Positions 6,679 through 61,701 of a stretch of 64,000 bases of DNA are shown here, one piece after another; the first letter of the stretch is position 1; each line of letters begins with the position of its first letter. The DNA lies in IMG/VR virus record IMGVR_UViG_3300030099_006646, positions 32,001 to 96,000 of that record. The stretch is one strand, 5' to 3'. Under the pieces are notes generated by a model, which was not told where the DNA came from, ran no database searches, and saw only the letters and a list, made by a program, of their open reading frames with translations. Origin of the DNA: a virus. Position numbers and translations under genes: made by a program.

Positions 6679-8484
6679 ATGGCAAAAAAATTTAAACCTC
6701 CAATAGACTATACATCGAGAGATTTTGATTCAATCAAGAGATCTTTAATAAACTACGCAAAAAAATATTACCCTAATACTTCTAATGATTTTAATGAAGC
6801 CTCTTTTGGCGCATTAATGGTGGATATGGTATCTTATATTGGAGATATAATGTCTTTTTACTTAGATTATCAAGCAAACGAGTCTTTTGTAGAATCAGCT
6901 ATTGAGTTTAAAAATGTTATAAGACTAGCAGAGCAGATGGGGTATAAATATGAACCAGAGGTCACAGCATACGGAACAGTCGCTATTTTTGTTAAAGTCC
7001 CAGCCAACACATCAGGATTAGGACCAGACACTGATTATATCCCTATTCTAAAAAGAAATTCAAAACTTACATCTACACAAAACACTAGTTTTATTTTAAC
7101 CTCAGATGTTGATTTTAAAAACGCCAACAACCAAGTGCTTGTTTCTGACGTGGACGCCGCAACCGGAACTCCAACTCATTATGCTATTAAAGCGTATGGC
7201 GAAGTTATTTCTGGCGACGTCGGTGTTGAAAGATTTGTTGTAGGTGATTATACGCCTTTTTTAAAACTTACAATGGAAACGAATAGTGTGGCAGAAATAC
7301 TTTCAGTTGTAGATTCAGATGGAAATGATTATTATCAAGTAGACTATCTTTCGCAAGACATAGTTTATCTTGATTCCTTGAACACAAACACAGAGGACAG
7401 AGATTATGTCTCGAATATTTTAAAGCCTGCTTCTGTTCCTAGAAGATTTGTATTGAAGCAAGACCCAACCAGTGTATCGTTACAGTTTGGACAAGGTTCT
7501 TCAACAGACGCCATAACTGAAAATGATGATAAATTAGATCCAAATAAAGTAGCTTTAAAGATGCACGGGAAAAAATATATTTCTGAGTCTTCTTTTGACC
7601 CTACCGTGCTGGTGAAAAACAATAACTTGGGAGTTGCTCCTGAAAATACTACTGTAAGTGTTTTTTATAGAACTAATTTGACCAACAATGTAAACGCAGG
7701 GGTTGATTCTGTCAATAGATTTGTTTCTGCTGATTTCGAATTTGAAAATCCTGAGCTTTTAACAGACTCGATAGTACAAGGCATTGTTACAACTGCCGAA
7801 GTTTCTAATGAGGAGCCTATTGTTGGGACAATATCAGACCCAGGCTTACGAGAAATTAAGATTAGAGCAAAAAATAGCTTTGCTACGCAAAACAGAGCAG
7901 TTACTAAAAAAGATTATCTATCTTTAGTATATTCTATGCCAAGTCGTTTTGGTTCTGTTGCCAGGGCGATGATAAAGCAAGATAAAGATTCTTTCAAAAG
8001 AAATCTTAATCTTTATGTTGTATCTCTCGGTCTTGACGCAACTCTCTTTACTACAAAAAGAAAAATAAAAGCAAATTTAAAAAATTGGCTTGCTCAATAT
8101 AAGATGTTAAACGATACAATAGATATTATTGACGCTAAGATTTTAAATCTTGGAATAGAATATAAAGCGATAGGACAGAGAAACGTCAACAAGCTTGATT
8201 TAATACAAGATATAAATGATGCTTTACGTCAGGCATTTATTGAACATCCACAAATTGGCGAATCTTTTTTTATAACAGATGTTTATAATGTGATAAACTC
8301 TGTACCAGGAGTTGTAGATGCCGACGACGTAGAAATATTCATACCCAGAGGAGAACTTTATTCCGACTTCACCATCGATTTGGATAATTATATCTCTCCC
8401 GATGGCAGATCTATAAAAGTGCCAGATGATGTTATTTGGGAGATAAAATTTATAGGTACAGACATTAAAGGAACAATTTTGTAA
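6679..8484 (+). CDS. Baseplate wedge protein, T4 gp6/baseplate J-like
   Basis: N-terminal DYTSRDFDSIK...FYLDYQANESF; QNRAVTKKDY motif; follows gp25. Confidence 0.9.
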   Translation: MAKKFKPPIDYTSRDFDSIKRSLINYAKKYYPNTSNDFNEASFGALMVDMVSYIGDIMSFYLDYQANESFVESAIEFKNVIRLAEQMGYKYEPEVTAYGTVAIFVKVPANTSGLGPDTDYIPILKRNSKLTSTQNTSFILTSDVDFKNANNQVLVSDVDAATGTPTHYAIKAYGEVISGDVGVERFVVGDYTPFLKLTMETNSVAEILSVVDSDGNDYYQVDYLSQDIVYLDSLNTNTEDRDYVSNILKPASVPRRFVLKQDPTSVSLQFGQGSSTDAITENDDKLDPNKVALKMHGKKYISESSFDPTVLVKNNNLGVAPENTTVSVFYRTNLTNNVNAGVDSVNRFVSADFEFENPELLTDSIVQGIVTTAEVSNEEPIVGTISDPGLREIKIRAKNSFATQNRAVTKKDYLSLVYSMPSRFGSVARAMIKQDKDSFKRNLNLYVVSLGLDATLFTTKRKIKANLKNWLAQYKMLNDTIDIIDAKILNLGIEYKAIGQRNVNKLDLIQDINDALRQAFIEHPQIGESFFITDVYNVINSVPGVVDADDVEIFIPRGELYSDFTIDLDNYISPDGRSIKVPDDVIWEIKFIGTDIKGTIL

Positions 8485-10016
8485 TGGCTATTAGAAGATA
8501 CACAGCAACTAAAGATAATACTATATCTGATGCTTTTAAGTCTAACTTAAGCGGAACAGCTACTGGCTCAAACATGGGCTTCGCGGATACATTAGAAGTA
8601 TTCTCCATTTATGGACAAGTTTCAAGTTCTTCGGGCTTTACGAAGGAACGTTCAAGGATTTTGATTAAATTCCCAGTCACAGGAACTTCTGGCATTGAAG
8701 CAGATAGAGATTCAGGGTTAATACCAGCATCTGGTAATGTAAATTTTTACTTGAACATGTATAATGCTATAACTCCCAACACGTTGCCAAAAGATTTTAC
8801 TTTAAACATCTATGCATTAGATGCTGCTTGGAATGAGGGCAGTGGACTAGACATGGAAGAATATAAAGATGAGGGAACATCCAACTGGACCAATAGAGTA
8901 GATAACGTAGCTTGGTCAAATACAGGTGGTTCTTTTCAAAACACAGCTTCCACCGCACCTTGGAATGCAAACGCTACATTCCAAAACGGAGACGAAGATA
9001 TGTCTATCGATGTTACTCCTTATGTAGAGTCCTGGATCAAAGGAACTGGCGGCGGCGGTTTTGAAAACTACGGATTTCTCGTCGCCCTAACTCCAATTGA
9101 GGAAAGCGCTTCGTTGTCTTACTATGATAAGAAGTTCTTTGCACGCAGTAGCGAATATTTCTTCAAACGCCCTGTCATCGAAGCACGCTGGAACAGTTGC
9201 GAAGGTGATGATAGAGGAAACTTCTTTTTTTCAAGCTCTCTTGCCACTGCGGCAAATAATATAAATACTCTTTATCTATACAACTACGTCAGAGGACAAC
9301 TTCAAGATATCCCTGGGCTGGGCAGTGATAAGTACGTCTATGTAAGTCTTTTTTCTGGCTCATTAAATAATGATGCCCCTTCTGGAGATGCTTTGATTTT
9401 GTCTGCCGACAACGATGGCAGAGTAAGAGCAGCAGCACCCACAGTCGTGACAGGTGGAATTGTCTCTACAGGTATCTATACCGCTTCTTTTGCCTTTACA
9501 GGCTCAACAACTTTGACTGATGTATTTGATGTTTGGTTTACTGGAAGCCATTCCACAGCAGATGCGACTAAAGCAACTATCCAGTTCCATACAGGAAATA
9601 TTATTCCTAATACGCTTGATTCTTCAAATATAAACCCCACGCCAACTTATGTTACAAAAGTTACAAATTTAAAACCATCCTATACGACAAGTGAAGAACC
9701 AAAGCTCAGAGTGTATACTAGAGAGAAGAATTGGTCACCAACAATATATACAGTAGCTAATTCTGAAATCCAAACTGACATTGTAAATCAAGCCTATTAC
9801 AGAGTGACGCGAGTTGTTGATGATTTAGAAGTTATCTCTTATGGTACAGGAAGCGATCAACAGACTAAGCTCTCATATGACGTTAGTGGAAATTACTTTG
9901 ATCTTGATATGTCTCTTTTGGAATCGGGTTATATGTATAACTTAAAGTTCGCTTATTACTTAAACGGCGTTTACAAGGAACAGCCAGAGACCTTCAAGTT
10001 TAGAGTGGAGGATTAA
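8484..10016 (+). CDS. Virion protein with N-terminal DNRLRE/CBM96-like beta-sandwich
   Basis: RSRILIKF...WNEG...DVTPYVESW...NYGFLV...RPVIEARW pattern; position in the baseplate module. Confidence 0.55.
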   Translation: MAIRRYTATKDNTISDAFKSNLSGTATGSNMGFADTLEVFSIYGQVSSSSGFTKERSRILIKFPVTGTSGIEADRDSGLIPASGNVNFYLNMYNAITPNTLPKDFTLNIYALDAAWNEGSGLDMEEYKDEGTSNWTNRVDNVAWSNTGGSFQNTASTAPWNANATFQNGDEDMSIDVTPYVESWIKGTGGGGFENYGFLVALTPIEESASLSYYDKKFFARSSEYFFKRPVIEARWNSCEGDDRGNFFFSSSLATAANNINTLYLYNYVRGQLQDIPGLGSDKYVYVSLFSGSLNNDAPSGDALILSADNDGRVRAAAPTVVTGGIVSTGIYTASFAFTGSTTLTDVFDVWFTGSHSTADATKATIQFHTGNIIPNTLDSSNINPTPTYVTKVTNLKPSYTTSEEPKLRVYTREKNWSPTIYTVANSEIQTDIVNQAYYRVTRVVDDLEVISYGTGSDQQTKLSYDVSGNYFDLDMSLLESGYMYNLKFAYYLNGVYKEQPETFKFRVED

Positions 10017-10018
10017 AA

Positions 10019-13000
10019 GTGCCAATAAAAGATTTATTTAATGATATCAATAGAATAGGCACTACTACAACTTCTTCTGTACCGAGTCATGCTAAAGTTC
10101 AAGAAGAAATAGAATCCATATCCTATGCATATGAAGTTCAAAGAGATAAAGATAGATTCATACCTCATGTAGATTACTCTAAACCAGAAAATTTTGCTAA
10201 ATATGGATCTGCCGAAGAGTATTATAAAGTTGCCATCGAATCGATCTACAATTACTATCCTTATGATGGCTCCTTGAAAGAGAAAGAAGAATGGTATAAT
10301 AATGCCACTTACTTTGAGACTTTTATTTTTGATAAAGAATATCCAAGGACTAATGGATATGCACTACTATCAGCAGATGGATGGGGGACACAAGCGTCAA
10401 CGAACAGTGGCTACGGTCTTCCAAATGATCTAGAATACATCTCTTTCAAAAGTGGACCTAATAAGAAGAATATTTGGGACGAAGGGAAAAAAAGAGAAGA
10501 AAATCTAAAGTTTGCATTATCTGGCGGAGTAACCATAGAATTTTGGCTAAAGAAAGACGCTTACGCTACCGCCCTTACAAACAGAGAAGTTATTTTCGAT
10601 TTATGGAATAGCAAACACAGCAATGAGCATGATTATGGTCGTTTAAGAATTGAACTGTCTGGCACATCCCCAGGTCCAGTTTTTAGATTAACAGCTCTTT
10701 CAGGTGCAACGGGTTTCCACAATGCTCCCATCGGTACAACCGTAACGCCGTCTACTGTCGCAAGTTCCGAATGGTCTCATTATGCCTTTACTATACAAAA
10801 CACAGGCTCAACAATCGCCGTGGAAATGTACAGAAACGGCGCGTATGTCGAAACAGTGCTAACTGGTTCAGGAATTGATCATGTCACAGGTTCTATATAT
10901 GCCTATATTGGCGCAAATACAACACCACCTAAGTATACTTTAGCAGCTACAGGCTCAGGTAAGCTATCTGGCTCTATTGATGACTTTAGATACTGGAAAA
11001 CCAAAAGAAGCGCAAGAGACATTGGAAGATATTATATCTCACAGGTCGGCGGCGGCACGAACACAGATGATGCCAATGTAGATTTAGGATTATATTTCAA
11101 GTTTAATGAAGGTATATCGAACATAGCCAATATTGATAGCACTGTACTTGATTACTCTGGTCGTCTAAGTAATGGATCTTGGACCGGATACGACGCCCAT
11201 TCTAGAAATACTGGCTCTGCAATGGTTTCATCCGGCAAAGCAGATTTTGAGTTTAAAGATCCAATTATTTATAGTTCACATCCAGATGTAGTTGCTTTCA
11301 AAGAACTAAAAACAACACTAGGCGAGCGACACGATATACAAAACTTTTCTTCAATGTATAAGAGTATACCAGCTTGGATAGTTGAAGATGACGAAGAGTC
11401 AGGGCAAGAATTAAAAAAACTAACTCAAATAATGTCCAGTTATTTTGATGAACTACACAATCAAATTGAAAATCTACCATCTTTGAAAAACATACAATAC
11501 CCTTCAGGCAGTGTTTTAACTGGTAGTTTTAAGCCCTACCCATTCTCAAAAAGACTTTTAACCTCTCACGGACTCGATGTTCCTGAGTTGTTTGTTGATA
11601 CAAGCATTATTGAAAACTTTCTCTCTCGCGATGAAGAAAAGAAATTTGAAGATAAAATCTACAATACTAAAAATCTAATATATCAAAATATCTATAACAA
11701 TCTTTTGTTTATCCTAAAATCGAAAGGAACTGAAAAATCTATAAACAATCTTATTAGAGCGTTTGGTGCCAACGAAGATATCATTAATGTAAATGTTTAC
11801 GGCAAGGAAACTGACTATGAGTTTAGAAAAAATGTCAAGTATAAATCAATAAGAAAAAAGCTTATCGATTTTGACAAGCCGGATAGAAACTTAGCCACAA
11901 TATACAATTACAAATCAGGATCAGGCACTACTTCATATATTTCAGGTTCAGACCCAGGCGGTCTGTACGTGGCGAACACTGTAGAGGCAGAAATCGTATT
12001 TCCAAGAAAAGTAGAGGAAGGTATTGATGGGTATTATAGCTTTCCAAACCTAACTTCTTCTTTGTTCGGACAACACACCGCAGATACTTCTCTGCCTGAA
12101 AATAATCTAGGATGGAATGTGCTGGATCACGCCGGTTTCCAAGTTTATGCTGTTAGGAATAAACATAATTCAAAAGATGCTTATTTTGTCTTAACTGGCT
12201 CTCTTATCTCTCCTATGGTAACAAATGTTTACAAAGATGTATACGATGAGGAGAAGTGGAATTTTGCTGTTAGGATTAGACCTTCTTCTTCTTTTGGTAA
12301 TCTTGTATCAGATGGAGGTTCTCTTGGCTATAGAGTTGAGTTTTATGGAGTAAACCAGAGGCTTGGAAATATTGAAAATGAGTTTATCTTATCTTCATCC
12401 ATGTCAGTTGATAATGGTAAAAGCTTCTTAAGTTCTTCAAAGAGAGTATACGCGGGCGCTCATAGGACTAATTTTTCTGGAAGCTTATTAGACTTGACTG
12501 ATATAAAGCTATCTTATTTAAGATTCTGGATGGATGATATAAAAGATCACACTATTAAAGATCATGCGATTGGTATGTACTCATATGGTCCGAGTAACCC
12601 TTACAAAAATTCTGCTGTAACCGATACAAGCCTTGGGCAAGTAGAAATACCGGAACTTGAAACCTTAGCACTTAATTGGGATTTTAAAAATGTCTCATCT
12701 TCCGCAGATTCAAGTGGGATTATTTTTGTTGATGATTTTTCTTCTGGTTCTAGTGATTTAATTAATCGCTATGGCTGGATTGGAAATATTACAAAACAAC
12801 TTTATACTGCACGAGTTGATAAACTAAATGCCAATGAAAACAATGTTGGAATAACAGATTTTATTCTTACAACTCAAAACAGATTACCAGAAGAGTTTAT
12901 TAGCTCTGATATGATTTCAATTGGTGAAGACAGTGATCAGATCTTTACTAAAGATACAAGACCTGTTGATTACTTTTTCTCTATTGAAAACAGTATGTAT

Positions 13001-15430
13001 AGAGTTATCTCAGAGGAGATAATCAATATCTTTTCTTCTATAATCGATTTTAATAATCTTGTCGGAGAGCCGGTCAATAGATATAGAAAAGAATACAAAG
13101 ACTTAGGCAAACTTAGACAGCTTTTCTTTGAAAGAGTAGAAAACAAGCCAGATATTGAAAGATATTTAGATTACTTTAAACATGTTGATTCTTTTATCCA
13201 GGAGATGCTAGAACAACTCATCCCAGCTTCTTCTAATGTATCTGATTCGGTCTTAAACATGGTTGAAAGTCATGTCTTAGAAAGAAATAAATATGATCAT
13301 AAATTCCCAACACTTGAGAGCAAGCAACCAGACCCTATAACTACTATACAAGGTATAAATGAACTTCTCTACAACTGGAAGTTTGGTCACGCTCCAATAA
13401 CCAACAAGCAGGGTGATAACTGCACTTACTGGCATGAACTTGCTGAAAGAGCAGGTTCTGTTATTACGTCTGGAGATGCAACAGTAGATTCTCAAAGAGA
13501 GACAATAAAAACAGTTGTAAACACAGAAGTATCTGGCTCAACCTATGCGACAAGAAAGCTTGGAAAGAGTTATCGTTTTGCTACAAAACTATCTAACGAC
13601 ATTGAAGGCGGATCTAATATAAAATCGAATAACCTGTTTAACTTCCACAGACAAGCTATTAAGTTTAATAGCAGTCAGGACTTTATTAAGTTTCCTTTTT
13701 CAGAGATTCAGTCAAATAAAAACTGTGATGAAGATAGAACCCCAGAAGAACTTAGAAAAAGAAATGTAATATTAAAAGCAACTACAACTTCTAAAGGCGA
13801 AGCAATAGATGCGAATGATTATCAAGATGGAAAAGCCAACCTTCTTCTTCCTTTTACAATTTTCTCTTCTTCAGTAAACACGGGGTATCTTGGGTATTTA
13901 CAGACTGGCGCAAGTGCCTCTTTTGAAAACATGCATAGAGATGTTGTAGGTAGAAATAATCAAAGACCGTTACAAGGACCATTTACTGAAAAATATGTCG
14001 GTGGATTGCAATACAGGCACGCCCCCTTAAACTATTCTGCCTCTGCTGTGACAAACCCCGGCAGCACCGCAAGATCTTTAGATACTCCCTCTACAAGACC
14101 CGAGGGTTGGTATCTTAAAATTCCAATCACCGAGGGCTCTAGTTTAAGCCTCTTGAGCGAATCTTTTAGTGGAACTGACCCTGTGGGCTGGACTAATGTT
14201 GGAAGTACCGCTACAGGACCTTCTGGGTGGATTCTAACGCATTCTGGTCCAACCCCTTCGGCAGGAACTGGTCCAAACTCTGCTTTTGATGGAACTCATT
14301 ACGCTTATGCTGAGACATCGACACCAAACCACCCCGGCGCACTCTTTGGACTTGTGACTCCAAAACTTGATGCAGATGATGTTGCAGTTACTGACTTTAG
14401 TGCTTCTTTCTATTACCATATGCATGGTGTAAATGTTGGTAACTTAAAAGTTCAGCATTCTCAAGATCCTACGTTTGGCGGAGGTATCACTGATTTATCT
14501 GTTGTTTGGGATTTTGTAGGCGACCCTACAACTGCAAATACTTTTATTGCTGGGCAACAACAAGCTAACGCTAGTGATGCTTACATTAAAGCTCAAATAG
14601 ATTTATCATCTTACGCAGGAACAGAATTTTATCTCCGATTCCTCTACCAAGGTGGTATTACATATCTTTCTGATGTTGCTATTGATGCGATTGAGGTTTC
14701 TGGTACTGCTGCTGGATCTATGTTTAAGCTTTTGGACCCGGCTTACGACAGCTTCACTGCAATGCGTGCTGTTTATTACCGTGATGAGGTGGCAAAAAGA
14801 CCTCTAAATATTAGAAACATTAAGATGACATCATCTTCTCCCACTATTATTGGAAACTACTCTAACAATTATGAAGTTGTAAACACTTCAGGGCGTAATA
14901 TTAACAACATCTGGTTTGTACAAAACAGCGGCAATGTTGCGTCGATCACTGCCGAGTCAGTGTTTATTTCTTCGTCTTTTGATTACGCATTAGCTAATAG
15001 AGATACACTTCAAGATGGAAGCAGAAACAAAACCGTTATTGTGGAAAGGTTTTCTGCTCCTGGTGGCGCAGAAGTGATGAGTCGCGGCTTTTTAGATGTT
15101 GCTTCTGAAACTTACTCTGTATACAACTGCCTTAACTACAGGAATTCAACTGTACGAAATAACTTAAATCTTTGGAATAAACATCATAGTATATTTGGAG
15201 GGACAAGTAGTTTTGGAACACCTCAAACAACTGGTTCTTATCACAAGGTACAAAGAAACACAGGAAAGAGAATTGAATGGGAAGGCGGCGTAGCTTTAAC
15301 TGGATCTGAGTCCATAATGAACGTCATAACAGCTTCTTATTATGATAATGGCTTTATAACTCATCAAATACCGCAAACTGACTCTGCATATTCTTGGATT
15401 ACAGGCTCCATTATACAATCCGTAATTTAG
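10019..15430 (+). CDS. Large baseplate wedge protein (gp7/P2 gpI-like core) with LamG and MAM domains
   Basis: ILKSKGTEKSINNLIRAFG (gpI/gp7-type KGT motif); LamG motifs TIEFWLK, WSHYAFT, GSIDDFRYW; MAM-like segment at about 14155-14705; GTG start. Confidence 0.65.
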   Translation: MPIKDLFNDINRIGTTTTSSVPSHAKVQEEIESISYAYEVQRDKDRFIPHVDYSKPENFAKYGSAEEYYKVAIESIYNYYPYDGSLKEKEEWYNNATYFETFIFDKEYPRTNGYALLSADGWGTQASTNSGYGLPNDLEYISFKSGPNKKNIWDEGKKREENLKFALSGGVTIEFWLKKDAYATALTNREVIFDLWNSKHSNEHDYGRLRIELSGTSPGPVFRLTALSGATGFHNAPIGTTVTPSTVASSEWSHYAFTIQNTGSTIAVEMYRNGAYVETVLTGSGIDHVTGSIYAYIGANTTPPKYTLAATGSGKLSGSIDDFRYWKTKRSARDIGRYYISQVGGGTNTDDANVDLGLYFKFNEGISNIANIDSTVLDYSGRLSNGSWTGYDAHSRNTGSAMVSSGKADFEFKDPIIYSSHPDVVAFKELKTTLGERHDIQNFSSMYKSIPAWIVEDDEESGQELKKLTQIMSSYFDELHNQIENLPSLKNIQYPSGSVLTGSFKPYPFSKRLLTSHGLDVPELFVDTSIIENFLSRDEEKKFEDKIYNTKNLIYQNIYNNLLFILKSKGTEKSINNLIRAFGANEDIINVNVYGKETDYEFRKNVKYKSIRKKLIDFDKPDRNLATIYNYKSGSGTTSYISGSDPGGLYVANTVEAEIVFPRKVEEGIDGYYSFPNLTSSLFGQHTADTSLPENNLGWNVLDHAGFQVYAVRNKHNSKDAYFVLTGSLISPMVTNVYKDVYDEEKWNFAVRIRPSSSFGNLVSDGGSLGYRVEFYGVNQRLGNIENEFILSSSMSVDNGKSFLSSSKRVYAGAHRTNFSGSLLDLTDIKLSYLRFWMDDIKDHTIKDHAIGMYSYGPSNPYKNSAVTDTSLGQVEIPELETLALNWDFKNVSSSADSSGIIFVDDFSSGSSDLINRYGWIGNITKQLYTARVDKLNANENNVGITDFILTTQNRLPEEFISSDMISIGEDSDQIFTKDTRPVDYFFSIENSMYRVISEEIINIFSSIIDFNNLVGEPVNRYRKEYKDLGKLRQLFFERVENKPDIERYLDYFKHVDSFIQEMLEQLIPASSNVSDSVLNMVESHVLERNKYDHKFPTLESKQPDPITTIQGINELLYNWKFGHAPITNKQGDNCTYWHELAERAGSVITSGDATVDSQRETIKTVVNTEVSGSTYATRKLGKSYRFATKLSNDIEGGSNIKSNNLFNFHRQAIKFNSSQDFIKFPFSEIQSNKNCDEDRTPEELRKRNVILKATTTSKGEAIDANDYQDGKANLLLPFTIFSSSVNTGYLGYLQTGASASFENMHRDVVGRNNQRPLQGPFTEKYVGGLQYRHAPLNYSASAVTNPGSTARSLDTPSTRPEGWYLKIPITEGSSLSLLSESFSGTDPVGWTNVGSTATGPSGWILTHSGPTPSAGTGPNSAFDGTHYAYAETSTPNHPGALFGLVTPKLDADDVAVTDFSASFYYHMHGVNVGNLKVQHSQDPTFGGGITDLSVVWDFVGDPTTANTFIAGQQQANASDAYIKAQIDLSSYAGTEFYLRFLYQGGITYLSDVAIDAIEVSGTAAGSMFKLLDPAYDSFTAMRAVYYRDEVAKRPLNIRNIKMTSSSPTIIGNYSNNYEVVNTSGRNINNIWFVQNSGNVASITAESVFISSSFDYALANRDTLQDGSRNKTVIVERFSAPGGAEVMSRGFLDVASETYSVYNCLNYRNSTVRNNLNLWNKHHSIFGGTSSFGTPQTTGSYHKVQRNTGKRIEWEGGVALTGSESIMNVITASYYDNGFITHQIPQTDSAYSWITGSIIQSVI

Positions 15431-15454: not shown

Positions 15455-18400
15455 ATGAACGACGAGAATTTAACATTTGTAAGTGCAAGTAACTTTGGAA
15501 GCTATATGGCTTCTTCGAGCGTCAACGCAACTGCACATAGAGTATGGGGCGCTACTTATGAAGATAAAGCAAACTCAGGATTTGTCCCAACTAATTTTGT
15601 AGGAATCAATGCAAATATCCAAGAGGCTGTCTCTTCTTCCTTTAATACTTTAGGATATCCTGCGTCTGTCCCTGTCATACTCCAAGCACAACAAGGGGCT
15701 GTAAGCTTTGTAAGCGGCAGTGATCAATATTTTGATGCAGGTAATCAAACAGCGTTTAGCTTTGGTAACGGCTCGCAAGATAGTGTTTTTTCTGTTAATT
15801 TTTGGATTAAGTGTGATGACCTTACAAGCGGAGCATATCAATACATTGCTGCTAAAAGTGAACAATCGCCGTCCAATTACGAATATGAGATTTATATTCA
15901 GAACTCACCAGCAGGAACTCTTAAGGTTAGATTATATGATGATAGCGCAGGAAGCTATATTCAGGCGTACACCACCAACAGCTTGAGCGCTTACGAAGGA
16001 GAGTTCTTCCATGTAACAATCACATATAACGCCAACGAGTCGGCATCAGGTATAAAAATTTATATTAATGGCGTATCAGTTAGTACTACCGGAGCCAGTT
16101 CGGGCACTTATACTGCAATGGAAGTCACCGACGCCAAATTAAATCTTGCAAGAGGGCGCGAAAACAATAGTAACGAATTCCAAGGCAAGCTGGCTAATTT
16201 TATGCTTTGGAGTAGAGAGTTGTCTGCGGACGATGCACTATCTCTATATAATAATGGATGCCCCACTCTGGCAAATAATGGTGTAGGTATATCTAATACC
16301 GGCTTGGTTGCCTGGTACAAGTTGGACGACTTAAGTGGTGCCGATAGCTCGGGCAATAACTATAATGGATCTTTTCCTAATAGCGCTACAGTAAGCAATA
16401 GAATGGTTTCTTTTGATTGTTATTCTCCACACACATCAAGCTATATTAATTCAGCGTTTATTCAACGAGCTGCGGACCCTAACAGTCCTTCTTATATTGA
16501 AGGTGGGCAAGTATTAAACGCCCTTATCCTCCACCGTCAAGGTCCTTATGGTTGGCCAAGTTGGAAACAAGTCCGCGTAGGAAACCACCCAGTAAATCGA
16601 GTTCACAGAAAAAACAATATATTCTCTTATGTTGAAAAAAGCTCTTTACAATCAACAGGTTATATATTTTCATATGGAACTCCCCCTTTCCCGTTTGTAT
16701 TCGCAGAAGATCCAGTTGGCTTTAATCTTACTGAATCTTGTGTATCTAGCAAACATAGACCAATACAGCACTCGTTTGTTGTAAAACAAAATGGCGAGCT
16801 AGTAAATTTAAATCTTAAGCATTCTTATGGAAATCTTGAAGAGCATTATACAAATGAGAAGATCAATATAAGGTTGAAGTTTAATGGAGATTTCCCAGAG
16901 CAGTTCACAAAAATCTATGATGATCTTAAAGAAATATACATCGATAAGAAATTTACTTATGATTTTGATGACGTTGCTCAGAACTTTGCCGAAGCCTTAA
17001 CCGAAGAAGAAGAAAAAGAAAACCCTTACGGAATGGATGTTCCTTTTAAAAAATGGGTCAACATGACTTATACCGAATGTGTATTTCCAAAGCAACAAAA
17101 CACTTTCCTTGCAAAAGCAAGAAAAAGAACCCAATATGCGGAAGTTTCAGGTTTAGGTTCAAATGGTTATGATAGAAGAGATTTTAGAACTTTCTGGAAA
17201 GATGATTTAAATGATAGAGCCATCCGTACAAATACTGTGTCTTTAAACTCTCAAGGCTTCCCAACAGCCTTTGTACAAAGCCTCTGGTCTTTAGATACGG
17301 GTGGTACAGAGCCATTTCACGCCGCCGTTCTTAACAAAAATAGCTCATCATTTGGAGAGCTTTTAGTTGCCAGAACACCCTTGAAAGGACCTGGCGGACC
17401 TATGGCTGCTGGAGGTTTTTACGACACAACTGCGTCTCTCTCTTTATACAGGTTTCAAGGCGGAGGAACTCCAACTCCACCCGATAGGTTTCTTTATGGC
17501 ATACCTTTATATGCCACTGATCAGATATCAGGAAAGAAACCTTTTTTCAACTCCTATGAAGATTTCGCGGAAGACATCAGAGGTATAGGCAAAGATTACT
17601 CTATCTTACCAGAGTTTCGTATTTCTGACCACATGGATTATTATGTAAGACAGAAAGAAGGAAATTTTTTGGCTAGAAACGATGCTTTTCTTTCTATGAT
17701 TGGGGGAAACATTACATCTAGCGCAGATCAAGAAGAGTCTACAACAGGAGGTAGGAATACTATTAATGTTCCATCGACCAGACCTCCAGGTATTGATGAA
17801 AATTTCTTTATTGAATACTCGCATTCTGATTTTCTCAAATATTTTCAAAAAGTTGCTGACGATCATCAAGAAGAAGGCGAAGTTAAAAGCTATACATTTT
17901 CAATGAAAGGAATAAAAAAGCTTCTTCCATATAAAGGATTTTATCCACATCAAAGAACACTCCAGCTAGGAACTATTTTGTCTCAATCGTATGGTTCTGT
18001 ATTATCTGGTTCACACGTAAGAGATGCCTCTATGGTTCCACCGCAAGCGACCGAGACAGCAATTTTAAATTCTTTTTTAAGACCGCTTGCAGCCCCTGGT
18101 ATAATGTTTAACTCTATTAAATCATCTTTGGCAGTTGATTATCCTGTTTTTACAGGTTCAGTAGGCATAACCGTCTCCACAGATAGTACTTTTTCTCTTA
18201 AATACATTAGCAGTGCCCCTAACTTCCGATTGCCATTCGAAACAATAATCCAGCCCGATACTTATATACCGACAGTAAAAAAAGCAGAACTAGATGCAGG
18301 CACTTTTATACAGAAATCTATCATTATGGACGAACCCATCGGCGGCGCAGGAACACTATTTTCTTTTGCAAAAACTGGACTAGGCGCTCCTTTATATTCT

Positions 18401-37245: not shown

Positions 37246-37256
37246 AGGAGAAAAAA

Positions 37257-39223: not shown

Positions 39224-39242
39224 TAGATAACTTATCTGAATA

Positions 39243-40817: not shown

Positions 40818-40820
40818 TAA

Positions 40821-45587: not shown

Positions 45588-45806
45588 ATGGCAAAACCAA
45601 AAAATTTAGAAGTAACTTTGCAGCAATGTAAAGGAGATCAAAACAGACTAATCAAGAGATTTATTAAAAAATTTAAAAAGTCTGGAATAATGGACGAGTT
45701 GAGAGATAGAAGGTTCCATCAAAAGAAATCAGACAAAAGAAGAAGAAAGAAAAACCAAAGAAAGAGAATACTTAAAAAAGAGCAACAAAAAAGAGGAGTT
45801 AAATAA
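45588..45806 (+). CDS. rpsU: Phage-encoded ribosomal protein bS21
   Basis: LIKRFIKKFKKSGIMDELRDRRFHQKKSDKRRRKK matches the bS21 pattern (LRRFKR..K.G...E.R.R..Y.KPS..R..K). Confidence 0.8.
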   Translation: MAKPKNLEVTLQQCKGDQNRLIKRFIKKFKKSGIMDELRDRRFHQKKSDKRRRKKNQRKRILKKEQQKRGVK

Positions 45807-46279
45807 TGTCAGTTTTTGAACAATATTCACCAGGGCTTGGAAGCGTAGGAAATTATCAGGTAGCAGGGACACCTTGGCTTACATCGTCAACCATCCCAGC
45901 TTCTGGCAATGTAGCTAATACTTCAAGAAATTCTAGCACGCAACATATCCAGTTTCCTTACGTTACAAAGCAGATTACAATAGAAAACATTGGAACAGGA
46001 GAAATCTGCTTTACTCTTAAGGACGAAGGAAATGCTCTTGGCGATGGCGTTAACGGTGGTCACTCCTTTACTATTCCTCCATCAGGATCAAATGGATCGC
46101 CTCTTAGTAGAGTGACTCTTGACATGAAAACAAAAGAAATTTTTATCTCAAACAAACATAATCAACCTGGAGGCTTTCAGGTTTATGCTTCTTTAACAAG
46201 AATCGACAGAAGACACATGTTTGAACTCACAGGATCTGGTATTAACAGCGAGCCAGGTGATACAACAATCGTACCATAA
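45806..46279 (+). CDS. Putative virion structural/decoration protein
   Basis: Beta-rich, Gly/Ser-rich; lies between bS21 and the fibre genes. Confidence 0.5.
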   Translation: MSVFEQYSPGLGSVGNYQVAGTPWLTSSTIPASGNVANTSRNSSTQHIQFPYVTKQITIENIGTGEICFTLKDEGNALGDGVNGGHSFTIPPSGSNGSPLSRVTLDMKTKEIFISNKHNQPGGFQVYASLTRIDRRHMFELTGSGINSEPGDTTIVP

Positions 46280-53084: not shown

Positions 53085-54860
53085 ATGTCTGTTTTACAAA
53101 AACTTACTGAAGGTATTCAAACACGCAACCTTCAGCAAGAAGGAGATGCCCTCCTCGAAAAGTGGGAGCGCACCGGACTTCTTGAAGGAATTACTGACGA
53201 GAATAAGCGTCAAGGAATGGCTCGTCTTCTAGAAAACCAAGCAGCTCAGTTGCTTAAAGAATCCTCTAGCATGGCTGCTGGAGATGTGGAAGGTTTCGCT
53301 TCTGTTGCTTTCCCAATTGTCCGCCGCGTATTCGGTGGTCTTATCGCGAATGATCTTGTATCCGTCCAGCCAATGAGCCTCCCTTCTGGTCTCATTTTCT
53401 TCTTGGACTTTCAAGTTTCCGATGAAACACCTAAGCTTGATTTTGATGCAGGTGACTCCCTCTACGGTGGTGGAGTTGTTGCAAGTCAATTGACAGGTGG
53501 TGTTAACCTTGAAGGCGATAACGCTTCCAAAGGTGCTTACAACTTGAACAATGGCTACGCTTCCCCAACTGGCTCTCACGATATTGCTGGTGGAACTTTA
53601 GTGGTTATTGCTTCTGGTTCTGTTGGTTCTGCTGCTGGAACATTCCCGCATCTAAACCAAGCTGCTCAAGATAAGCTTGACAAGCTCGTTCGTTTCGACC
53701 CTGACTTGTCTGGTTCTTTGGTCGTTGTTGTTGAGACAACAGGTTCTACTGCTGGAAACATGGAACAACTTAATGTTAAAAACCTTGTTCCAATGATTGA
53801 AACTAGACTCGGCACTACGGCAAAGCTTGTTCGTCGTTTGACAACAGTTGCGACAGGATCTTCATCCGACGATCCTTCCACATCAAACTTCAGACTTCAG
53901 CTTACCTTTGCTCAGGCTGCTGGCACCACTCCGTTCGATAATGGAGCAGGCACCTCTCTTATGGGTAACTTAACTGGTGCAGCAACACTTGTAGGGCTTC
54001 AGTACAACATTGATGACAACTTCACTGCTAGTACAGCAATTGGTTCTGTTGTCGGTGCTACTGCTTGGGAACTCGAAGCTAATACTGGTATTCCAGAGAT
54101 TGACATCAAAGTTGACTCTGTTGCCGTTACAGCAATGACCAAGAAGCTCAAAGCTAAGTGGACACCAGAATTAGGTCAAGACTTGAATGCTTACCACAAC
54201 CTCGATGCTGAAGTTGAACTTACAAGCATTCTTTCTGAGCAGGTTGCTCTTGAAATCGATCAAGAGATCCTCGAAGACCTCGTTAAGGGTGCCAAAGCTG
54301 GTACTTACTACTGGAGCCGCTCCCCCGGTCTCTTCGTTAATCGCACAACTGGTGCTGAAATTGGAGCTTCTGCTGCTGCTCCTGACTTCACTGGTACAGT
54401 TAGCGAATGGTACGAGACACTTCTCGAAACCATCAATGACGTAAGTGCTCAGATTCACCGTAAGACACTTCGCGGTGGCGCAAACTTTGTTGTTTGTGGA
54501 CCAGAAGTTGCTAACGTGATGGAGTTCACAGCCGGCTTCCGCGCTACAGTGACTGCTGATGATGCCAAAGGCACAATCGGCGCTGTTAAGACAGGTACTC
54601 TAAATAACAAGTGGGATGTCCATGTTGACCCATACTTCCCACGTAACGTTGTTCTTGTTGGTCGCAGAGGTTCTGGATTCCTCGAATCTGGATATGTCTA
54701 CGCTCCATATGTACCTCTCCAGGTAACACCAACTATCTTCGGTACGGAAGACTTCGTACCACGTAAGGGTGTCATGACCCGTTACGCGAAGAAGATGGTA
54801 CGTCCTGATATGTACGGTCTTGTTATTGTACGTGGTCTCCTTGGTGAGTCCGGTAGCTAA
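53085..54860 (+). CDS. Major capsid protein (T4 gp23-like)
   Basis: VQPMSLPSGLIFFL, KLKAKWTPELGQDLNAYH, YAPYVPL, PRKGVMTRY; highly biased codon use. Confidence 0.95.
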   Translation: MSVLQKLTEGIQTRNLQQEGDALLEKWERTGLLEGITDENKRQGMARLLENQAAQLLKESSSMAAGDVEGFASVAFPIVRRVFGGLIANDLVSVQPMSLPSGLIFFLDFQVSDETPKLDFDAGDSLYGGGVVASQLTGGVNLEGDNASKGAYNLNNGYASPTGSHDIAGGTLVVIASGSVGSAAGTFPHLNQAAQDKLDKLVRFDPDLSGSLVVVVETTGSTAGNMEQLNVKNLVPMIETRLGTTAKLVRRLTTVATGSSSDDPSTSNFRLQLTFAQAAGTTPFDNGAGTSLMGNLTGAATLVGLQYNIDDNFTASTAIGSVVGATAWELEANTGIPEIDIKVDSVAVTAMTKKLKAKWTPELGQDLNAYHNLDAEVELTSILSEQVALEIDQEILEDLVKGAKAGTYYWSRSPGLFVNRTTGAEIGASAAAPDFTGTVSEWYETLLETINDVSAQIHRKTLRGGANFVVCGPEVANVMEFTAGFRATVTADDAKGTIGAVKTGTLNNKWDVHVDPYFPRNVVLVGRRGSGFLESGYVYAPYVPLQVTPTIFGTEDFVPRKGVMTRYAKKMVRPDMYGLVIVRGLLGESGS

Positions 54861-55950: not shown

Positions 55951-57240
55951 ATGGCGTCCCCTACACTTACTCCCGCTAGCCAAATGTCAAAGGTAATATT
56001 ACCTGCGACTGGCAACACTGATACTGCCGCATCAGGCTCTTTATATGCTTTAGGAGTGTATGTTGATAACACTTCTGATCTTTATGACGTTAGCTTTATT
56101 TCAGGTGCTTCAGACCAAGTAACTTACACTTACAGAAAACTCGGTGGAGCAGTATTAGATATTGAACTCACAGAGGAAGATGTCTATTCTCACTATGAAG
56201 ACGCTGTTTTGGAATATTCTTATTTGGTGAATATCCATCAAGCTAAGAATTCTTTACCTAATGCCCTTGGAGCCGCCACAGGAACTTTTGATCAAGACGG
56301 ACAACAAACGTCAGATTCCGCTCTGTTTGGCATTACAGCCTCTCTACAGTATCCTGAGTTTTCTTTTGACTATGCCCTTAGAGTAGGCAAGAAAACGTCT
56401 ACAGAGGTCGGAATCGGGGGGGATTTGCCAATTTATTCTGCTTCCTTCGACGTCGTAACAGATCAACAAGATTACGATCTTCAAAATCTTATCTCTTCTT
56501 CCGCTGCAACAGATACAGATGCTCTTTATTTTGATAAAGTTGGCAATAAAAGAGTGACCATTAGAAAAGTTTATTATAAAACACCATATGCTCAGTGGAG
56601 ATTTTACAGCTACTACGGTGGATTAAATACCATCGGCAACATGTCTACTTATGGTCAGTTCGCAGACGATTCACAATTTGAAGTAGTTCCAACATGGCAG
56701 AATAAACTTCAAGCAATGGCTTACGAAGATGCAATCTATACAAGAACATCACAATATTCTTTTGAAATTAAGAACAATCGATTAAGAATATTCCCTCCAC
56801 CAGAGACTGAAAATTTCCCAGAAAGGTTTTGGATTGAGTTTACGGTTAAATACGACCCTTGGACTGAAGATGACACCGCAGATAGTGGCTTAACAGGCGT
56901 TAATAACATGAACACGCTTCCTTTCTCCAACCTTCCATATAACAGTATCAACTCTATAGGTAAACAATGGATTAGAAGATTTGCTCTTGCAATATCTAAA
57001 GAAACTCTTGGACAAGTCCGAGGGAAGTTCGGCTCTATACCCATCCCAGGTAATGATGTCACTCTAAATGCGTCTGATCTTTTATCTCAGGCTCAATCAG
57101 AGAAAGAAACACTCAGAGAAGAACTCAAGACAGTTCTAGATGAGCTTACATACGAAAAGCTCAGTGAGAAACAAAACAATATTACAACAACTGCACTAGA
57201 AACAATGCAGAAGATACCTGTCGGTATTTTCCAAGGATAG
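55951..57240 (+). CDS. Neck protein (gp13-like)
   Basis: LGGAVLDIEL; QWIRRFALAISKETLGQVRGKF; VTLNASDLLSQA. Confidence 0.8.
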   Translation: MASPTLTPASQMSKVILPATGNTDTAASGSLYALGVYVDNTSDLYDVSFISGASDQVTYTYRKLGGAVLDIELTEEDVYSHYEDAVLEYSYLVNIHQAKNSLPNALGAATGTFDQDGQQTSDSALFGITASLQYPEFSFDYALRVGKKTSTEVGIGGDLPIYSASFDVVTDQQDYDLQNLISSSAATDTDALYFDKVGNKRVTIRKVYYKTPYAQWRFYSYYGGLNTIGNMSTYGQFADDSQFEVVPTWQNKLQAMAYEDAIYTRTSQYSFEIKNNRLRIFPPPETENFPERFWIEFTVKYDPWTEDDTADSGLTGVNNMNTLPFSNLPYNSINSIGKQWIRRFALAISKETLGQVRGKFGSIPIPGNDVTLNASDLLSQAQSEKETLREELKTVLDELTYEKLSEKQNNITTTALETMQKIPVGIFQG

Positions 57241-58578: not shown

Positions 58579-58600
58579 AAAGTATTTTGGCGTTTTCACT

Positions 58601-58611: not shown

Positions 58612-58662
58612 AGAGAATGAAATTATATTCACCCTAAATCTAGAGTAATAGGAGAATAAAGG

Positions 58663-61600
58663 ATGTCAGTTAAAAAGTATAAATTTGTTTCCCCCGGAGT
58701 TTTTGTCTCTGAAATCGACAACTCTCAAATAACAGAAGCACCAGCCGACCCAGGTCCAGTCCTCATTGGACGCGCACAAAGAGGTCCTGGTCTCCGCCCA
58801 GTACAAGTAGATTCTTTTTCCGAATTTATTAACATTTTTGGAAACCCTACAGCAGTAGGAACACAAACAGATGCATGGCGAGCAGGAGATAGCTCTGCTC
58901 CACTTTATGCTGTTTATGCAGCACAAGCTTGGCTAAGAAACAATAGCCCTATTACTTTTGTTCGTCTCCTTGGTGATGAGCACCCTAAAAAAACCTCTGG
59001 TGGCGAAGCTGGTTGGTATACTAGAGACACAGACGGTACCTTCAACGGAATGGCTCAGGACGGCGGTGGCGCATATGGTCTTTTCATTTTCCCCTCCGGT
59101 AATGTAGCTCACATCGCAGCAGTCCACGCCGATTCCCGTAATAATTATACTGGATCTCTTGCAGCTATTTTCTATTGTAACTCGGGATACATTGGTCTTT
59201 CCGGTTCTATTGCTGGTTTTGATCCCACCTCAACAGACGTAGCCCACAACACATCTAGTGCAGGTGCTCTTATTGCTAGCCTTTCTGGTGAAAAGGCATT
59301 TACCGCTGAAATTTTCAACTCTTCACAAGAAGTTGTTGATAAACTCACATTCTCTTTGGATAAAAACTCCGACAAGTACATTAGAAACGTTTTTAATACA
59401 TCTCCTTCTAAGTCTTGGACTCGCGTCACAGACAATAGCGTGACTTATTTCCTTGGAGAGACTTTTGAAAGACACTCTGCTGAAGCATTTAAGTCGAATG
59501 GAGTAAAGCAAGCCTCCTCGGTTGGAGCTTATGGAGCAATTGTTCCGCTGAAGCTTCAAAATTCTGCCACTTCAATTGAACAGGGAGACCACAGGAAAGC
59601 TTCTCAAGCCGCTCAAACAGGCTGGTTCTTTTCGCAGGACTTAAATACTATCAATGGTTCTACTCTTGCTGCTCCTGTCGCAAACAACTACAGCCCTCAA
59701 AAGCAGCAAAAGCTTTTCAAGATTCATGCTCTTGACACAGGCGCATGGGATACAAAGAACCTTAAGGTATCTATTTCAAGCGTAAGAGCCTCTTCTAATG
59801 ACTCTAATCCATATGGAACATTTACCGTTGAACTAAGAAGAATCGACGATTTAGACTCGGCAGTTCAGATTATTGAACAGTTCAATAACTGTAACTTAAA
59901 CCCCGACTCCCCTGATTATGTTGCAAAGAAAATCGGTGACAGATATCAAACGTGGGATACAACAAATAATCGGTACACTGAATATGGCGACTACGCCAAT
60001 CAATCTAGGTTCATTCGCGTAGAAATTAATCCCGATGTCAACAACAAGACAACTGATGAAAGACTACTGCCGTTTGGTGTATATGGACCACCTCGACATC
60101 AAACTATTCAGTTTACTAGTGGTTCTCACTTGACAGCTATTAACAGCTTCACGCAGGAAACGGTCGCATCTGCTCCACGAATGGCTTATCCTGCTTCTGG
60201 TGCTTCTTACCCAGGTGGTAGAAACGCTCTCAATAGAGACACTGGATTTCTTTATTTCCCACTCACCTGCACCAACGGCAGTTCGACATTATCTTACGCA
60301 TTTACTGCTTCGTTGGAATTCCCAAGAACTTACTTGAGAATTAGTAGCTCTGACGGAAGAGTTCAATCTCCTAAGAGTGCTTATTTCGGAGTAGATACAT
60401 CACTGGGTGCTGACGGGTTTAGTACTTATAACTTTGGTACTCAAGATGTATTACAACCTAAAGCAAAAGATATTGATGACTTCTCTGTTTCAAATAACGG
60501 TGCCACAGCTTACAGTTGGATCTTCTCTCTTGATGATATCTCTCGTCAGGGCGGCACAGGAACTGGCGGTGACATCACACCAGACGCCTTGTACGTTTCT
60601 GGCTCAAGAGCAGCAGGAAACTCTATTACAGCTATTTCTAGCTCATATACTTCTGTACTTGATGAAGGTTTCAACTCTTTCACAACCGTCCTACACGGCG
60701 GAAATGATGGTCTTGATATTTATGAAAAAGAGCCATTTAACAATACAGATGCTCTTAGTGGAGATGCAACAGAAACATCAAGCTATGCTTATTACAGTGT
60801 AAAGAAGGCTGTTGATTCTATCTCTGACGCAGAAGTTGTAGAGTATAACTTAGCAGCAATGCCCGGTATCACTAACACTGCTCTAAACGACTACTTGATC
60901 AGTGTCTGTGAAGACAGAGGCGACTCATTGGCAGTTATTGATATACCTAGCGCATATGTACCAGCGGTCGATGGAGGATCTGCGAACTCTTACGCAGCTC
61001 GACGTTATACAGCAAAAAATGCAATCGATGCACTCAAGACAAGAGGACTTAACTCAAGCTATGCTTGTACTTACTTCCCTTGGGTTCAAATGAGAGACAC
61101 GGTTAATGATAGAATTTTATGGGCACCACCTTCTATTGCAGCTTTGGGAACTTTCTCTAGCTCTGAAAGCGCAACAAGACTTTGGTTTGCTCCTGCTGGA
61201 TTCAATCGCGGCGGTCTTACAGAAGGCTCCGCTGGTATCCCTATCATTGGAGTAAGAGACAAGCTTACATCTAAACAAAGAGATGATCTTTACGAAGCGA
61301 ACATCAATCCTATTGCTTCTTTCCCAGCAGAAGGGATCGTTATTTTCGGTCAAAAGACACTTCAGGTGACTCGTTCTGCTCTTGATAGAATCAATGTTAG
61401 AAGGCTCATGATTTTCGTTAAAAAGCAAATCTCTAGAATTTCTAATGGTCTTCTTTTTGACCAGAACGTTCCTGCAACATGGGATCGTTTCTTAGCTCAG
61501 GTTGATCCTTTCTTAGAAGGTATTAAAACTGACTTTGGCTTGACTGATTTTAAAGTTGTACTTGATGAAACTACAACAACGCCAGATTTGATTGATAGAA

Positions 61601-61701
61601 ATATCATGTATGCTAAAATCTTCCTCAAGCCAGCCCGCGCCATCGAGTATATTGCGATTGACTTTAATATCACAAATACAGGCGCATCTTTTGAGGACTA
61701 A
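58663..61701 (+). CDS. Contractile tail sheath protein (gp18-like)
   Basis: FVSPGVFVSEID, WFAPAGFNRG, INPI, FGQKTL, DRINVRRL. Confidence 0.95.
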   Translation: MSVKKYKFVSPGVFVSEIDNSQITEAPADPGPVLIGRAQRGPGLRPVQVDSFSEFINIFGNPTAVGTQTDAWRAGDSSAPLYAVYAAQAWLRNNSPITFVRLLGDEHPKKTSGGEAGWYTRDTDGTFNGMAQDGGGAYGLFIFPSGNVAHIAAVHADSRNNYTGSLAAIFYCNSGYIGLSGSIAGFDPTSTDVAHNTSSAGALIASLSGEKAFTAEIFNSSQEVVDKLTFSLDKNSDKYIRNVFNTSPSKSWTRVTDNSVTYFLGETFERHSAEAFKSNGVKQASSVGAYGAIVPLKLQNSATSIEQGDHRKASQAAQTGWFFSQDLNTINGSTLAAPVANNYSPQKQQKLFKIHALDTGAWDTKNLKVSISSVRASSNDSNPYGTFTVELRRIDDLDSAVQIIEQFNNCNLNPDSPDYVAKKIGDRYQTWDTTNNRYTEYGDYANQSRFIRVEINPDVNNKTTDERLLPFGVYGPPRHQTIQFTSGSHLTAINSFTQETVASAPRMAYPASGASYPGGRNALNRDTGFLYFPLTCTNGSSTLSYAFTASLEFPRTYLRISSSDGRVQSPKSAYFGVDTSLGADGFSTYNFGTQDVLQPKAKDIDDFSVSNNGATAYSWIFSLDDISRQGGTGTGGDITPDALYVSGSRAAGNSITAISSSYTSVLDEGFNSFTTVLHGGNDGLDIYEKEPFNNTDALSGDATETSSYAYYSVKKAVDSISDAEVVEYNLAAMPGITNTALNDYLISVCEDRGDSLAVIDIPSAYVPAVDGGSANSYAARRYTAKNAIDALKTRGLNSSYACTYFPWVQMRDTVNDRILWAPPSIAALGTFSSSESATRLWFAPAGFNRGGLTEGSAGIPIIGVRDKLTSKQRDDLYEANINPIASFPAEGIVIFGQKTLQVTRSALDRINVRRLMIFVKKQISRISNGLLFDQNVPATWDRFLAQVDPFLEGIKTDFGLTDFKVVLDETTTTPDLIDRNIMYAKIFLKPARAIEYIAIDFNITNTGASFED

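Follow-up and report, generated by a model that had tools for sequence, protein, structure and literature searches.

A Ser/Thr-Gly-Ser tripeptide enriched in virion proteins of a marine T4-like phage lineage: a candidate tag for phage-encoded O-glycosylation

Virions of mycobacteriophages are glycosylated by glycosyltransferases that the phages themselves encode, and the glycans have been placed at the C-termini of capsid and tail-tube subunits (Freeman et al. 2023, as summarised in PMC12619734). We examined a possible counterpart in a distant T4-type myovirus. Its virion module is contained in a stretch of 64,000 nucleotides (the window), which corresponds to nt 32001-96000 of the 158.6-kb viral contig IMGVR_UViG_3300030099_006646, a record estimated to be about 75% complete. 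The element in question is the tripeptide Ser/Thr-Gly-Ser ([ST]GS), which recurs in the virion proteins and which an earlier note on this DNA had proposed as a sequon for glycosylation or another modification of the particle surface. As far as the summary of the mycobacteriophage work allows a comparison, the present phage likewise encodes its own glycosyltransferases (four, just upstream of the virion module), the proposed acceptors are again its own capsid and tail proteins, and the mycobacteriophages provide a precedent for the outcome. The major capsid protein (MCP) here also ends in S-G-S. On the other hand, the candidate sites are mostly internal tripeptides at strand ends, distributed over a dozen proteins, and the tail tube, a glycan-bearing subunit in that summary, carries no motif. 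In addition, the hosts are of the Bacteroidota type and not Actinobacteria, and the system is a prediction from sequence.

The candidate enzyme considered here is a tandem pair of GT4-type glycosyltransferases encoded some 24 kb upstream of the window, at genome nt 5951-7210 and 7210-8457. Among described systems, Aah and TibC carry out soluble, cytoplasmic O-glycosylation of many Ser and Thr residues in the β-rich surface proteins AIDA-I and TibA (PMC3835316), as is proposed here. Aah, however, acts without a sequence consensus, whereas the tripeptide described below is sharp. The candidates here are GT4 proteins and no GT9/BAHT-type enzyme was found, the heptosyltransferase fold PF01075 having no match at E<=1 in the incomplete record. 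The GtfA/GtfB system (PMC6973325) is similar in that two adjacent GT-B genes encode one complex for cytoplasmic Ser/Thr O-glycosylation, and in that a conserved primer pair is accompanied by a variable number of extending glycosyltransferases; for the present pair, the heterodimer is a prediction. The differences are that no DUF1975 match was obtained (TIGR02918 scored 15.6 bits against a cut-off of 574.6), that both subunits keep EX7E so that neither looks like a pure chaperone, and that the acceptors would be folded β domains and not Ser-rich repeats. Accessory Sec genes were not present among the Pfam matches of the genome. With no GT9 enzyme, no DUF1975 and equivalog scores far below the cut-offs, the pair, judged from its sequence matches, is a member of neither the Aah/TibC nor the GtfA/GtfB family. 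Chloroviruses and mimiviruses glycosylate their capsids with virus-encoded sugar-nucleotide pathways (GMD, aminotransferase and others) and soluble glycosyltransferases, independently of the host secretory machinery. The present phage also encodes its own sugar-nucleotide pathways and soluble glycosyltransferases, but the former are viruses of eukaryotes, in which the sequons are N-linked and atypical or the glycans belong to fibrils.

Throughout, positions are those of the window unless genome positions are indicated, open reading frames (ORFs) are named by their first nucleotide, and window features given with both ends lie on the + strand. When [ST]GS was compared with composition-preserving shuffles, as the earlier note had recommended, a clear excess was observed. 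In a pooled virion set of 14 proteins (9453 aa), TGS occurred 34 times against 6.8 expected and SGS 35 times against 8.2 (total 69 vs 15). These two tripeptides ranked first and second among all 8000, with Poisson probabilities of about 1e-13 and 3e-12, respectively. Genome-wide there are 85 copies, of which 69 are found in about ten virion proteins; elsewhere the motif is at expectation. The specificity of the signal was high. Permutations of the same residues (SGT, TGT, GSS, SSG, GTS and STG) were near chance at 0.85-1.5x, the remaining xGy combinations were also at about 1x, and at the third position Ser (69) was favoured over Thr (19). At the middle position, a gradient was found from Gly (4.6x) through Ala (2.4x) to Ser (2.1x), in agreement with the previous remark that [ST]AS and SSS are also common (about 2-2.7x enriched).

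The hand counts given earlier for individual proteins were all reproduced. The largest number was found in the 1803-aa baseplate/fibre protein ORF 10019 (10019..15430), which harbours a ConA-like (Laminin_G_3) domain and a weak MAM-like domain; its 17 copies compare with 2.6 computed from composition, close to the rough figure of 2 estimated before. The 901-aa tail fibre ORF 46297 (46297..49002) has 11 copies (2.6 expected). Six copies each are present in the gp23-type MCP (53085..54860; 0.7 expected), in ORF 28268, a 381-aa conserved virion protein (28268..29413; 1.0 expected), and in ORF 15455, a 1496-aa ConA-like/LamG giant with an N-terminal Laminin_G_3 domain (15455..19945; 2.0 expected, and 18 vs 6.3 for [ST][GAS]S). 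Five copies each were counted in ORF 8484, a 510-aa virion protein with no family match (8484..10016; 0.8 expected, p about 0.001-0.002), and in ORF 29424, a 400-aa paralogue of ORF 28268 related in its C-terminal half (29424..30626; 0.5 expected). The 1012-aa tail sheath (58663..61701) has four copies (1.5 expected), the 857-aa second fibre with a Peptidase_S74 C-terminus, ORF 49156 (49156..51729), has three (1.4 expected), and the 157-aa ORF 45806 (45806..46279) has two (0.5 expected; homologues 11 vs 2.1). In whole-protein shuffles, six proteins reached p<=0.002 and ORF 15455 p=0.016; the sheath (p=0.06) and ORF 49156 (p=0.14) were individually non-significant. The proteins that bear the motif belong to at least seven families without BLAST-detectable similarity to one another, in line with the contention that it occurs in unrelated folds. 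PHROGs and Pfam returned no family for ORFs 8484, 28268, 29424, 20980 and 24577.

The motif is missing from several internal or non-virion proteins. The SbcD-SbcC fusion (34093), large terminase (39243) and portal (40821), all within 34093..42752, contain no copy in 2217 aa, just as had been stated. Zero copies were likewise counted in ORFs 20980 and 24577 and in the baseplate wedge ORF 6679, and one in the 1945-aa ORF 401. The buried tail tube (61744) and baseplate hub (62346), within 61744..63233, have none, nor do 35 of their homologues (5.0 expected). Taking the tube, hub, portal, scaffold and terminase together, [ST]GS was found zero times here and once in the homologues of relatives, where 10.6 would be expected.

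Such an excess might be an artefact of Ser/Thr/Gly-rich composition, of internal repeats or of a word at the DNA level, and some observations point this way. The enriched proteins are rich in these three residues, and two proteins owe many of their copies to internal repeats. One is ORF 46297, in which 8-10 of the 11 copies derive from 4-5 tandem units of about 113 aa located ahead of the Peptidase_S74 intramolecular-chaperone domain, each unit carrying one L-x-V-S-G-S-T-x-F-G and one H-x-F-[ST]-G-S-x-Y-V. The other is the spike from the Flavobacterium phage vB_FspM_immuto (immuto hereafter), the closest cultured relative (MCP 48% identical). The GGC codon is also over-used at the motif Gly. 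Against this, shuffling within blocks of 15 and 30 residues gave 16.3±3.9 copies where 66 were observed, with a maximum of 31 in 2000 shuffles, and local composition therefore does not account for the motif; same-residue permutations were not enriched, and the 17 copies of ORF 10019 are non-periodic. The codons and the nine-base words at the sites were varied, which places the signal at the protein level. An artefact thus seems very improbable, the shuffles having largely refuted it. A DNA-level cause was likewise rejected in view of the varied codons, with only a mild preference for GGC and a mild under-representation of GATC. As separate observations, the motif Gly is encoded by GGC at 30 of 71 sites, compared with 24% overall, with GGA under-used, and GATC is present at 0.7x expectation (387 vs 548) in a phage that carries two Dam-type methyltransferases.

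We then consider where the motif is situated within the proteins. As noted earlier, five of the six MCP copies lie in an inserted region, at residues 162-259; the insertion domain (53505..53984, residues 141-300) would be expected to contain 0.36. The sixth copy is the C-terminal tripeptide S-G-S itself (54849-54857). The MCPs of relatives end in a small [AS]-G-[AS]-[TS] tail, which is reminiscent of the C-terminal glycosylation sites of mycobacteriophage capsids. In the sheath, all four copies are N-terminal to the conserved core (Pfam, 713-1004), and the core is free of the motif. The regions of T4 that are equivalent to the MCP insertion and to the N-terminal part of the sheath face outward. 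Adopting this orientation from T4, the enrichment, four- to fivefold over chance overall, appears to be confined to outward-facing proteins and domains.

The residues flanking the motif are not random. Position -1 is hydrophobic at 61% of the sites against a background of 32%, being L, A, V, F or I at 49 of 69, and the positions that follow are also enriched in hydrophobic residues. The same was true of immuto, with 62% hydrophobic at position -1 and 60% at the residue after the motif. We therefore regard the unit as φ-[ST]-G-S-φ, in which φ is a hydrophobic residue. The general O-glycosylation system of Bacteroidota, which is periplasmic, recognizes D-[ST]-[AILVMT]. This system was discarded as an explanation, as position -1 is one of the five residues above at most sites and not Asp, and virions assemble in the cytoplasm. 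AlphaFold2 models of the MCP and ORF 28268, of low to moderate confidence, placed the motifs at the beginning or end of β-strands, an example being SGS-LVVVVET-TGS in the MCP. The predicted local distance difference test (pLDDT) values were 44 for the MCP (58-80 in the insertion domain) and 58 for ORF 28268, too weak to gauge side-chain exposure. No convincing fold relative of ORF 28268 was found with Foldseek (best E 0.69) or VIA-align (best Z 3.9).

These features raise the possibility, our main rival explanation, that φ-[ST]-G-S-φ is purely structural, a tight turn or corner ending β-strands in surface domains and fibre repeats with nothing attached, and that the sugar genes serve otherwise, for example in remodelling host envelope glycans. 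The location at strand ends in both models is what such a turn would give, as is the size gradient of the middle residue, which a tight turn would require. Five copies in the LamG domain of ORF 10019 overlie what we read, against the LamG consensus, as glycine turns. On the other hand, among the xGy combinations solely TGS and SGS stand out, and Ser is favoured over the β-branched Thr just before a strand; neither would be anticipated from a turn, and the involvement of at least seven families with no detectable similarity also speaks against one. T4, cyanophage Syn33, Cellulophaga phage Ingeline and pelagiphage HTVC111P have comparable β-rich fibres, sheaths and capsid insertions and no excess. 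We regard a purely structural role as a serious contender, yet on the whole rather unlikely.

The distribution of the motif was examined in 40 IMG/VR relatives, whose MCPs are 51-96% identical (best aligned segment), and in cultured phages. In the IMG/VR homologues, [ST]GS was found 135 times in the MCP (28 expected), 93 times in the sheath (25.5 expected) and 83 times in the fibre (23 expected). The gp13-like neck protein acting as head-tail adaptor (55951..57240) has a single copy in the window phage; its homologues have 68 where 15.2 are expected. Every related locus holding these virion proteins was enriched 2-8x, and no relative that had lost the enrichment, a natural knock-out, was found among the IMG/VR loci compared. 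Certain sites are fixed, and others, in variable domains, are gained and lost with the density maintained. At MCP residues 163, 210 and 220, the motif is present in 22-29 of 37 relatives, and in the ORF 28268 family five sites are kept in at least half of 119 homologues. In the sheath family, 82 sites are scattered over 44 alignment columns, just one of which is conserved in at least half of the sequences; control patterns occupied mostly 14-27 columns, and the overlapping SG[ST] 34. Such turnover with density maintained is not what a structural element would lead one to expect.

In the virion proteins of immuto, SGS was the top tripeptide (58 vs 15) and TGS the fourth (43 vs 15.4), and its non-virion proteins were at expectation. 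Virion proteins of immuto with no BLAST match in the window phage were also strongly enriched (26 vs 5.9 and 12 vs 1.3). The 373-aa immuto protein at 135031-136152 has 12 motifs. A possible gain of motifs after acquisition was sought by comparing the immuto tail spike with fibre segments of HTVC111P and Ingeline that are homologous to it; of its 26 sites, 19 fell in an N-terminal repeat region that has no counterpart in these segments. By contrast, no excess was detected in the head, tail, baseplate and fibres of T4 (12 vs 16 expected), in Syn33 (8 vs 7.8), in Ingeline, whose host is of the same class (10 vs 6.3), in HTVC111P (4 vs 3.9) or in TJE1 (13 vs 10). The excess is thus a property of the lineage and not of T4-like virions. 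After immuto, the next-closest cultured relatives are Microcystis phage Mel-JY01 and Rhodothermus phage RM378. Homologues of ORF 28268 number at least 8000 in metagenomes, many of them from Tara samples, which points to an abundant marine lineage. The window phage and immuto have 37 of 155 genes in common at E<1e-5.

Concerning the enzymes, the earlier note had proposed looking elsewhere in the genome for glycosyltransferases and sugar-nucleotide enzymes, and both were found. An island of about 25 kb (genome nt 950-26000, loci L041 and L042), just upstream of the window and the virion module, encodes three GT4 and one GT2-like glycosyltransferases and a phosphomannomutase, with about 15 sugar-nucleotide enzymes in all upstream of the virion module. 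The island also encodes a UDP-GlcNAc 2-epimerase, a GNAT protein, a PhyH dioxygenase, WbqC, a hexapeptide acyltransferase, methyltransferases including a sugar C-methyltransferase, a DegT aminotransferase, three SDR epimerase/dehydratases including a GMD-like protein, and a PfkB kinase with a cytidylyltransferase-like protein, which resemble an NDP-heptose module. Of this island, immuto shares no more than the GT4 pair, the hexapeptide transferase and a short DegT piece. The DegT-type aminotransferase is divided into two adjacent ORFs (L041:18115-18738 and 18745-19500; 207 and 251 aa). In immuto, a similar short piece of 214 aa (41% identical) accompanies a full-length WecE, and the division may therefore be genuine and not due to faulty sequencing. 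A GT-D (DUF1792) extender was considered for the ORF at genome nt 11058-11846 and found no support, with no PF08759 match at E<=1, no match in the PDB, and 16.3 bits against NF040628 (cut-off 75). A lipid-linked pathway of the Wzx/Wzy type was also set aside: no match to PF02397, PF00953 or PF01943 revealed an initiating phosphoglycosyltransferase or a Wzx flippase in this incomplete record, and the host could supply them.

The two proteins of the GT4 pair, encoded next to a PD-(D/E)XK nuclease, matched Pfam PF00534/PF13692 at 54.6 and 38.2 bits (gathering cut-off 26.4). In alignments, E286...E294 and E278...E286 in the C-terminal Rossmann domains are invariant, and we take these Glu pairs to be EX7E motifs. 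All four glycosyltransferases lack transmembrane segments. The first gene of the pair is present in all four complete IMG/VR relatives (58-84% identical) and the second in two of the four loci (47-83%); in the two remaining loci no matching ORF of at least 250 aa was called. The pair is adjacent and syntenic in immuto and Mel-JY01, RM378 has a weak match to the second gene, and neither gene was found in T4 or Syn33. In a complex prediction, the pair gave an ipSAE score of 0.88 against 0.00 for the best control, with runs agreeing in at least 93% of contacts and a partner pLDDT of at least 90. Among solved complexes, 58 of 80 attain this mark, compared with 2 of 110 mismatched pairs. The proteins are thus predicted to form a heterodimer, a result that may partly reflect their likeness to solved glycosyltransferase complexes. 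The sole sequence match of the second protein in the PDB was the chlorovirus glycosyltransferase B736L (PDB 3oy2, E=0.002), a weak similarity that is generic to GT4 proteins.

What the pair acts on can be approached from immuto. Analysis of its DNA by liquid chromatography with ultraviolet and mass-spectrometric detection yielded dA, dC, dT and a single further peak, fdPreQ1, with no other modified nucleoside (bioRxiv 10.1101/2023.04.13.536721). With no additional modified nucleoside in that phage, the orthologous pair is unlikely to be a DNA glycosyltransferase, and the result speaks against DNA as the acceptor. The phages that bear the pair have hosts in three phyla (Flavobacteriia, Rhodothermus and Microcystis). 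Retention across these hosts argues for a phage-borne acceptor and is less readily explained by host glycans.

Promoter-like sequences point to when these genes may be expressed. A ACTATTTAT-type element, (A)CTATTTAT(A), is present 15 times on the coding strand and twice on the other (5.2 expected), and lies 10-130 nt 5' of virion genes, including those for the sheath, fibre, scaffold and protease. Its positions include 27276, 33719, 44425, 49079, 51864, 55563 and 58603 of the window (add 32000 for the genome) and genome nt 2542 and 27361. The gap-free gene block at genome nt 2566-25998, with the glycosyltransferase and sugar genes, is also preceded by such an element. Replication genes have TGnTTATAATA in its place, an element found about 30 nt upstream of SbcDC (window 34080), helicase, DNA polymerase III alpha, GroEL and other non-virion genes. 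From the shared ACTATTTAT-type element, the glycosyltransferase/sugar block may be co-expressed with the virion genes. The T4-type late promoter TATAAATA was also considered and dismissed, as it is under-represented and never upstream of genes.

Taking these results together, we tentatively favour, at slightly below an even chance, the reading that φ-[S/T]-G-S-φ is a strand-end O-glycosylation acceptor tag on the virion surface. It would mark the junction from β-strand to loop in the inserted region of the MCP, the outer domains of the sheath, the neck and fibres, and the proteins at the periphery of the baseplate. At a late stage of infection, a Ser or Thr of the tag would be O-glycosylated by the GT4 heterodimer, acting as a soluble enzyme in the cytoplasm on virion proteins that are folding or already folded. 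Extension of the glycan, and its supply with unusual sugars, would fall to the two remaining glycosyltransferases and the approximately 15 sugar-nucleotide enzymes, and a sugar coat over the whole particle would result. Four elements of this scheme are inferred: that proteins are the substrates of the glycosyltransferases, that these use the tag as acceptor, the identity of the modified residue, and the role of the coat. A phage-encoded cytoplasmic O-glycosylation system with the tag as its acceptor seems the most economical account, one for which we would claim nearly, but not quite, an even chance of being correct.

A number of observations weigh against this proposal. Several sites are near-invariant together with their hydrophobic flanks, for example I-S-G-S-V-F in 118 of 119 ORF 28268 homologues, and many lie within periodic fibre repeats, with hexapeptide or 113-aa units; such sites, like the LamG glycine turns, are all predicted by a structural turn or corner motif. 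By sequence the glycosyltransferases are generic GT4 proteins that score far below every NCBIfam equivalog cut-off, which would also suit a role outside the virion, and marine-phage sugar clusters are usually assumed to alter host envelope glycans. The non-virion proteins of the phage show no depletion of the motif. RM378 (11 vs 4.0) and Mel-JY01 (19 vs 8.8) are intermediate, with only a 2-3x excess over the partial regions covered, despite carrying the pair (in RM378, a weak match to the second gene). As for the co-occurrence check that had been suggested, the excess does track the conserved GT4 pair and is absent without it, but the comparison is one clade against outgroups, phylogenetically confounded and with no independent gain or loss. 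The incompleteness of the record also means that genes reported absent may be merely missing. Furthermore, literature searches turned up no demonstration of virion modification in the lineage by mass spectrometry, staining or structure. The sequon interpretation of the earlier note is therefore upheld in part: the enrichment, the unrelated families, the glycosyltransferase cluster and the co-occurrence favour it, whereas the signal comes from a single clade and a structural motif also explains the conserved and repeat sites. The two readings are compatible, as a structural element can be what an enzyme reads.

A further explanation is that the tag is read by something other than a glycosyltransferase, either an enzyme of another modification (e.g. 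Ser phosphorylation or acylation) or a phage-encoded factor for folding or assembly with strand ends as its docking sites. In its favour are the specificity of the tag and its confinement to virion proteins. The phage has GNAT and zeta-toxin/AAA_33-type kinase domains, and an unusual proteostasis set of GroEL, an FKBP-type isomerase, Hsp20 and two ClpP homologues. However, none of these factors is shown to be conserved with the motif (no conservation test was made of them), chaperones that read tripeptides are not known, and no enzyme pair other than the GT4 pair was seen to follow the enriched lineage. We consider this explanation improbable.

Returning to the acceptor tag, a T4-like lineage that ranks among the most abundant in the sea would, if the proposal holds in full, coat its whole particle with O-glycans of phage-made rare sugars through a soluble heterodimeric GT4 that reads φ-[S/T]-G-S-φ. 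Among systems described in phages, it would be the first to glycosylate proteins across the particle under the direction of a sequon, a broader claim that we put forward with greater reserve. Were the tag a glycosylation sequon, sequence alone would suffice to predict the glycosites of phage particles in thousands of genomes from marine phages, and the sugar-gene islands of these phages, large and puzzling as they are, would acquire a function. Virion glycosylation would be extended from mycobacteriophages to an abundant lineage with Bacteroidota, Rhodothermus and cyanobacterial hosts, and a compact enzyme-tag pair would be at hand that is testable for glyco-engineering. Were the motif purely structural, it would still be an unusually sharp, lineage-specific design rule for β-strand termini. 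The availability of a cultured member, immuto, whose host is Flavobacterium sp. LMO8, makes the question directly testable.

Some further features of the genome were recorded. SbcD and SbcC are encoded by a single fused ORF of 1050 aa (window 34093-37245), situated between the baseplate and head gene blocks. The region at genome 93-158 kb (loci L043-L046) encodes GroEL, an FKBP-type prolyl isomerase, Hsp20, two ClpP-like proteases and a peptide deformylase. Also encoded there are a PEP carboxykinase, an IMP dehydrogenase/GMP reductase, an adenylosuccinate synthetase and a PAP2 membrane phosphatase, together with the two Dam-type methyltransferases and both a DNA polymerase III alpha subunit and a family A polymerase.

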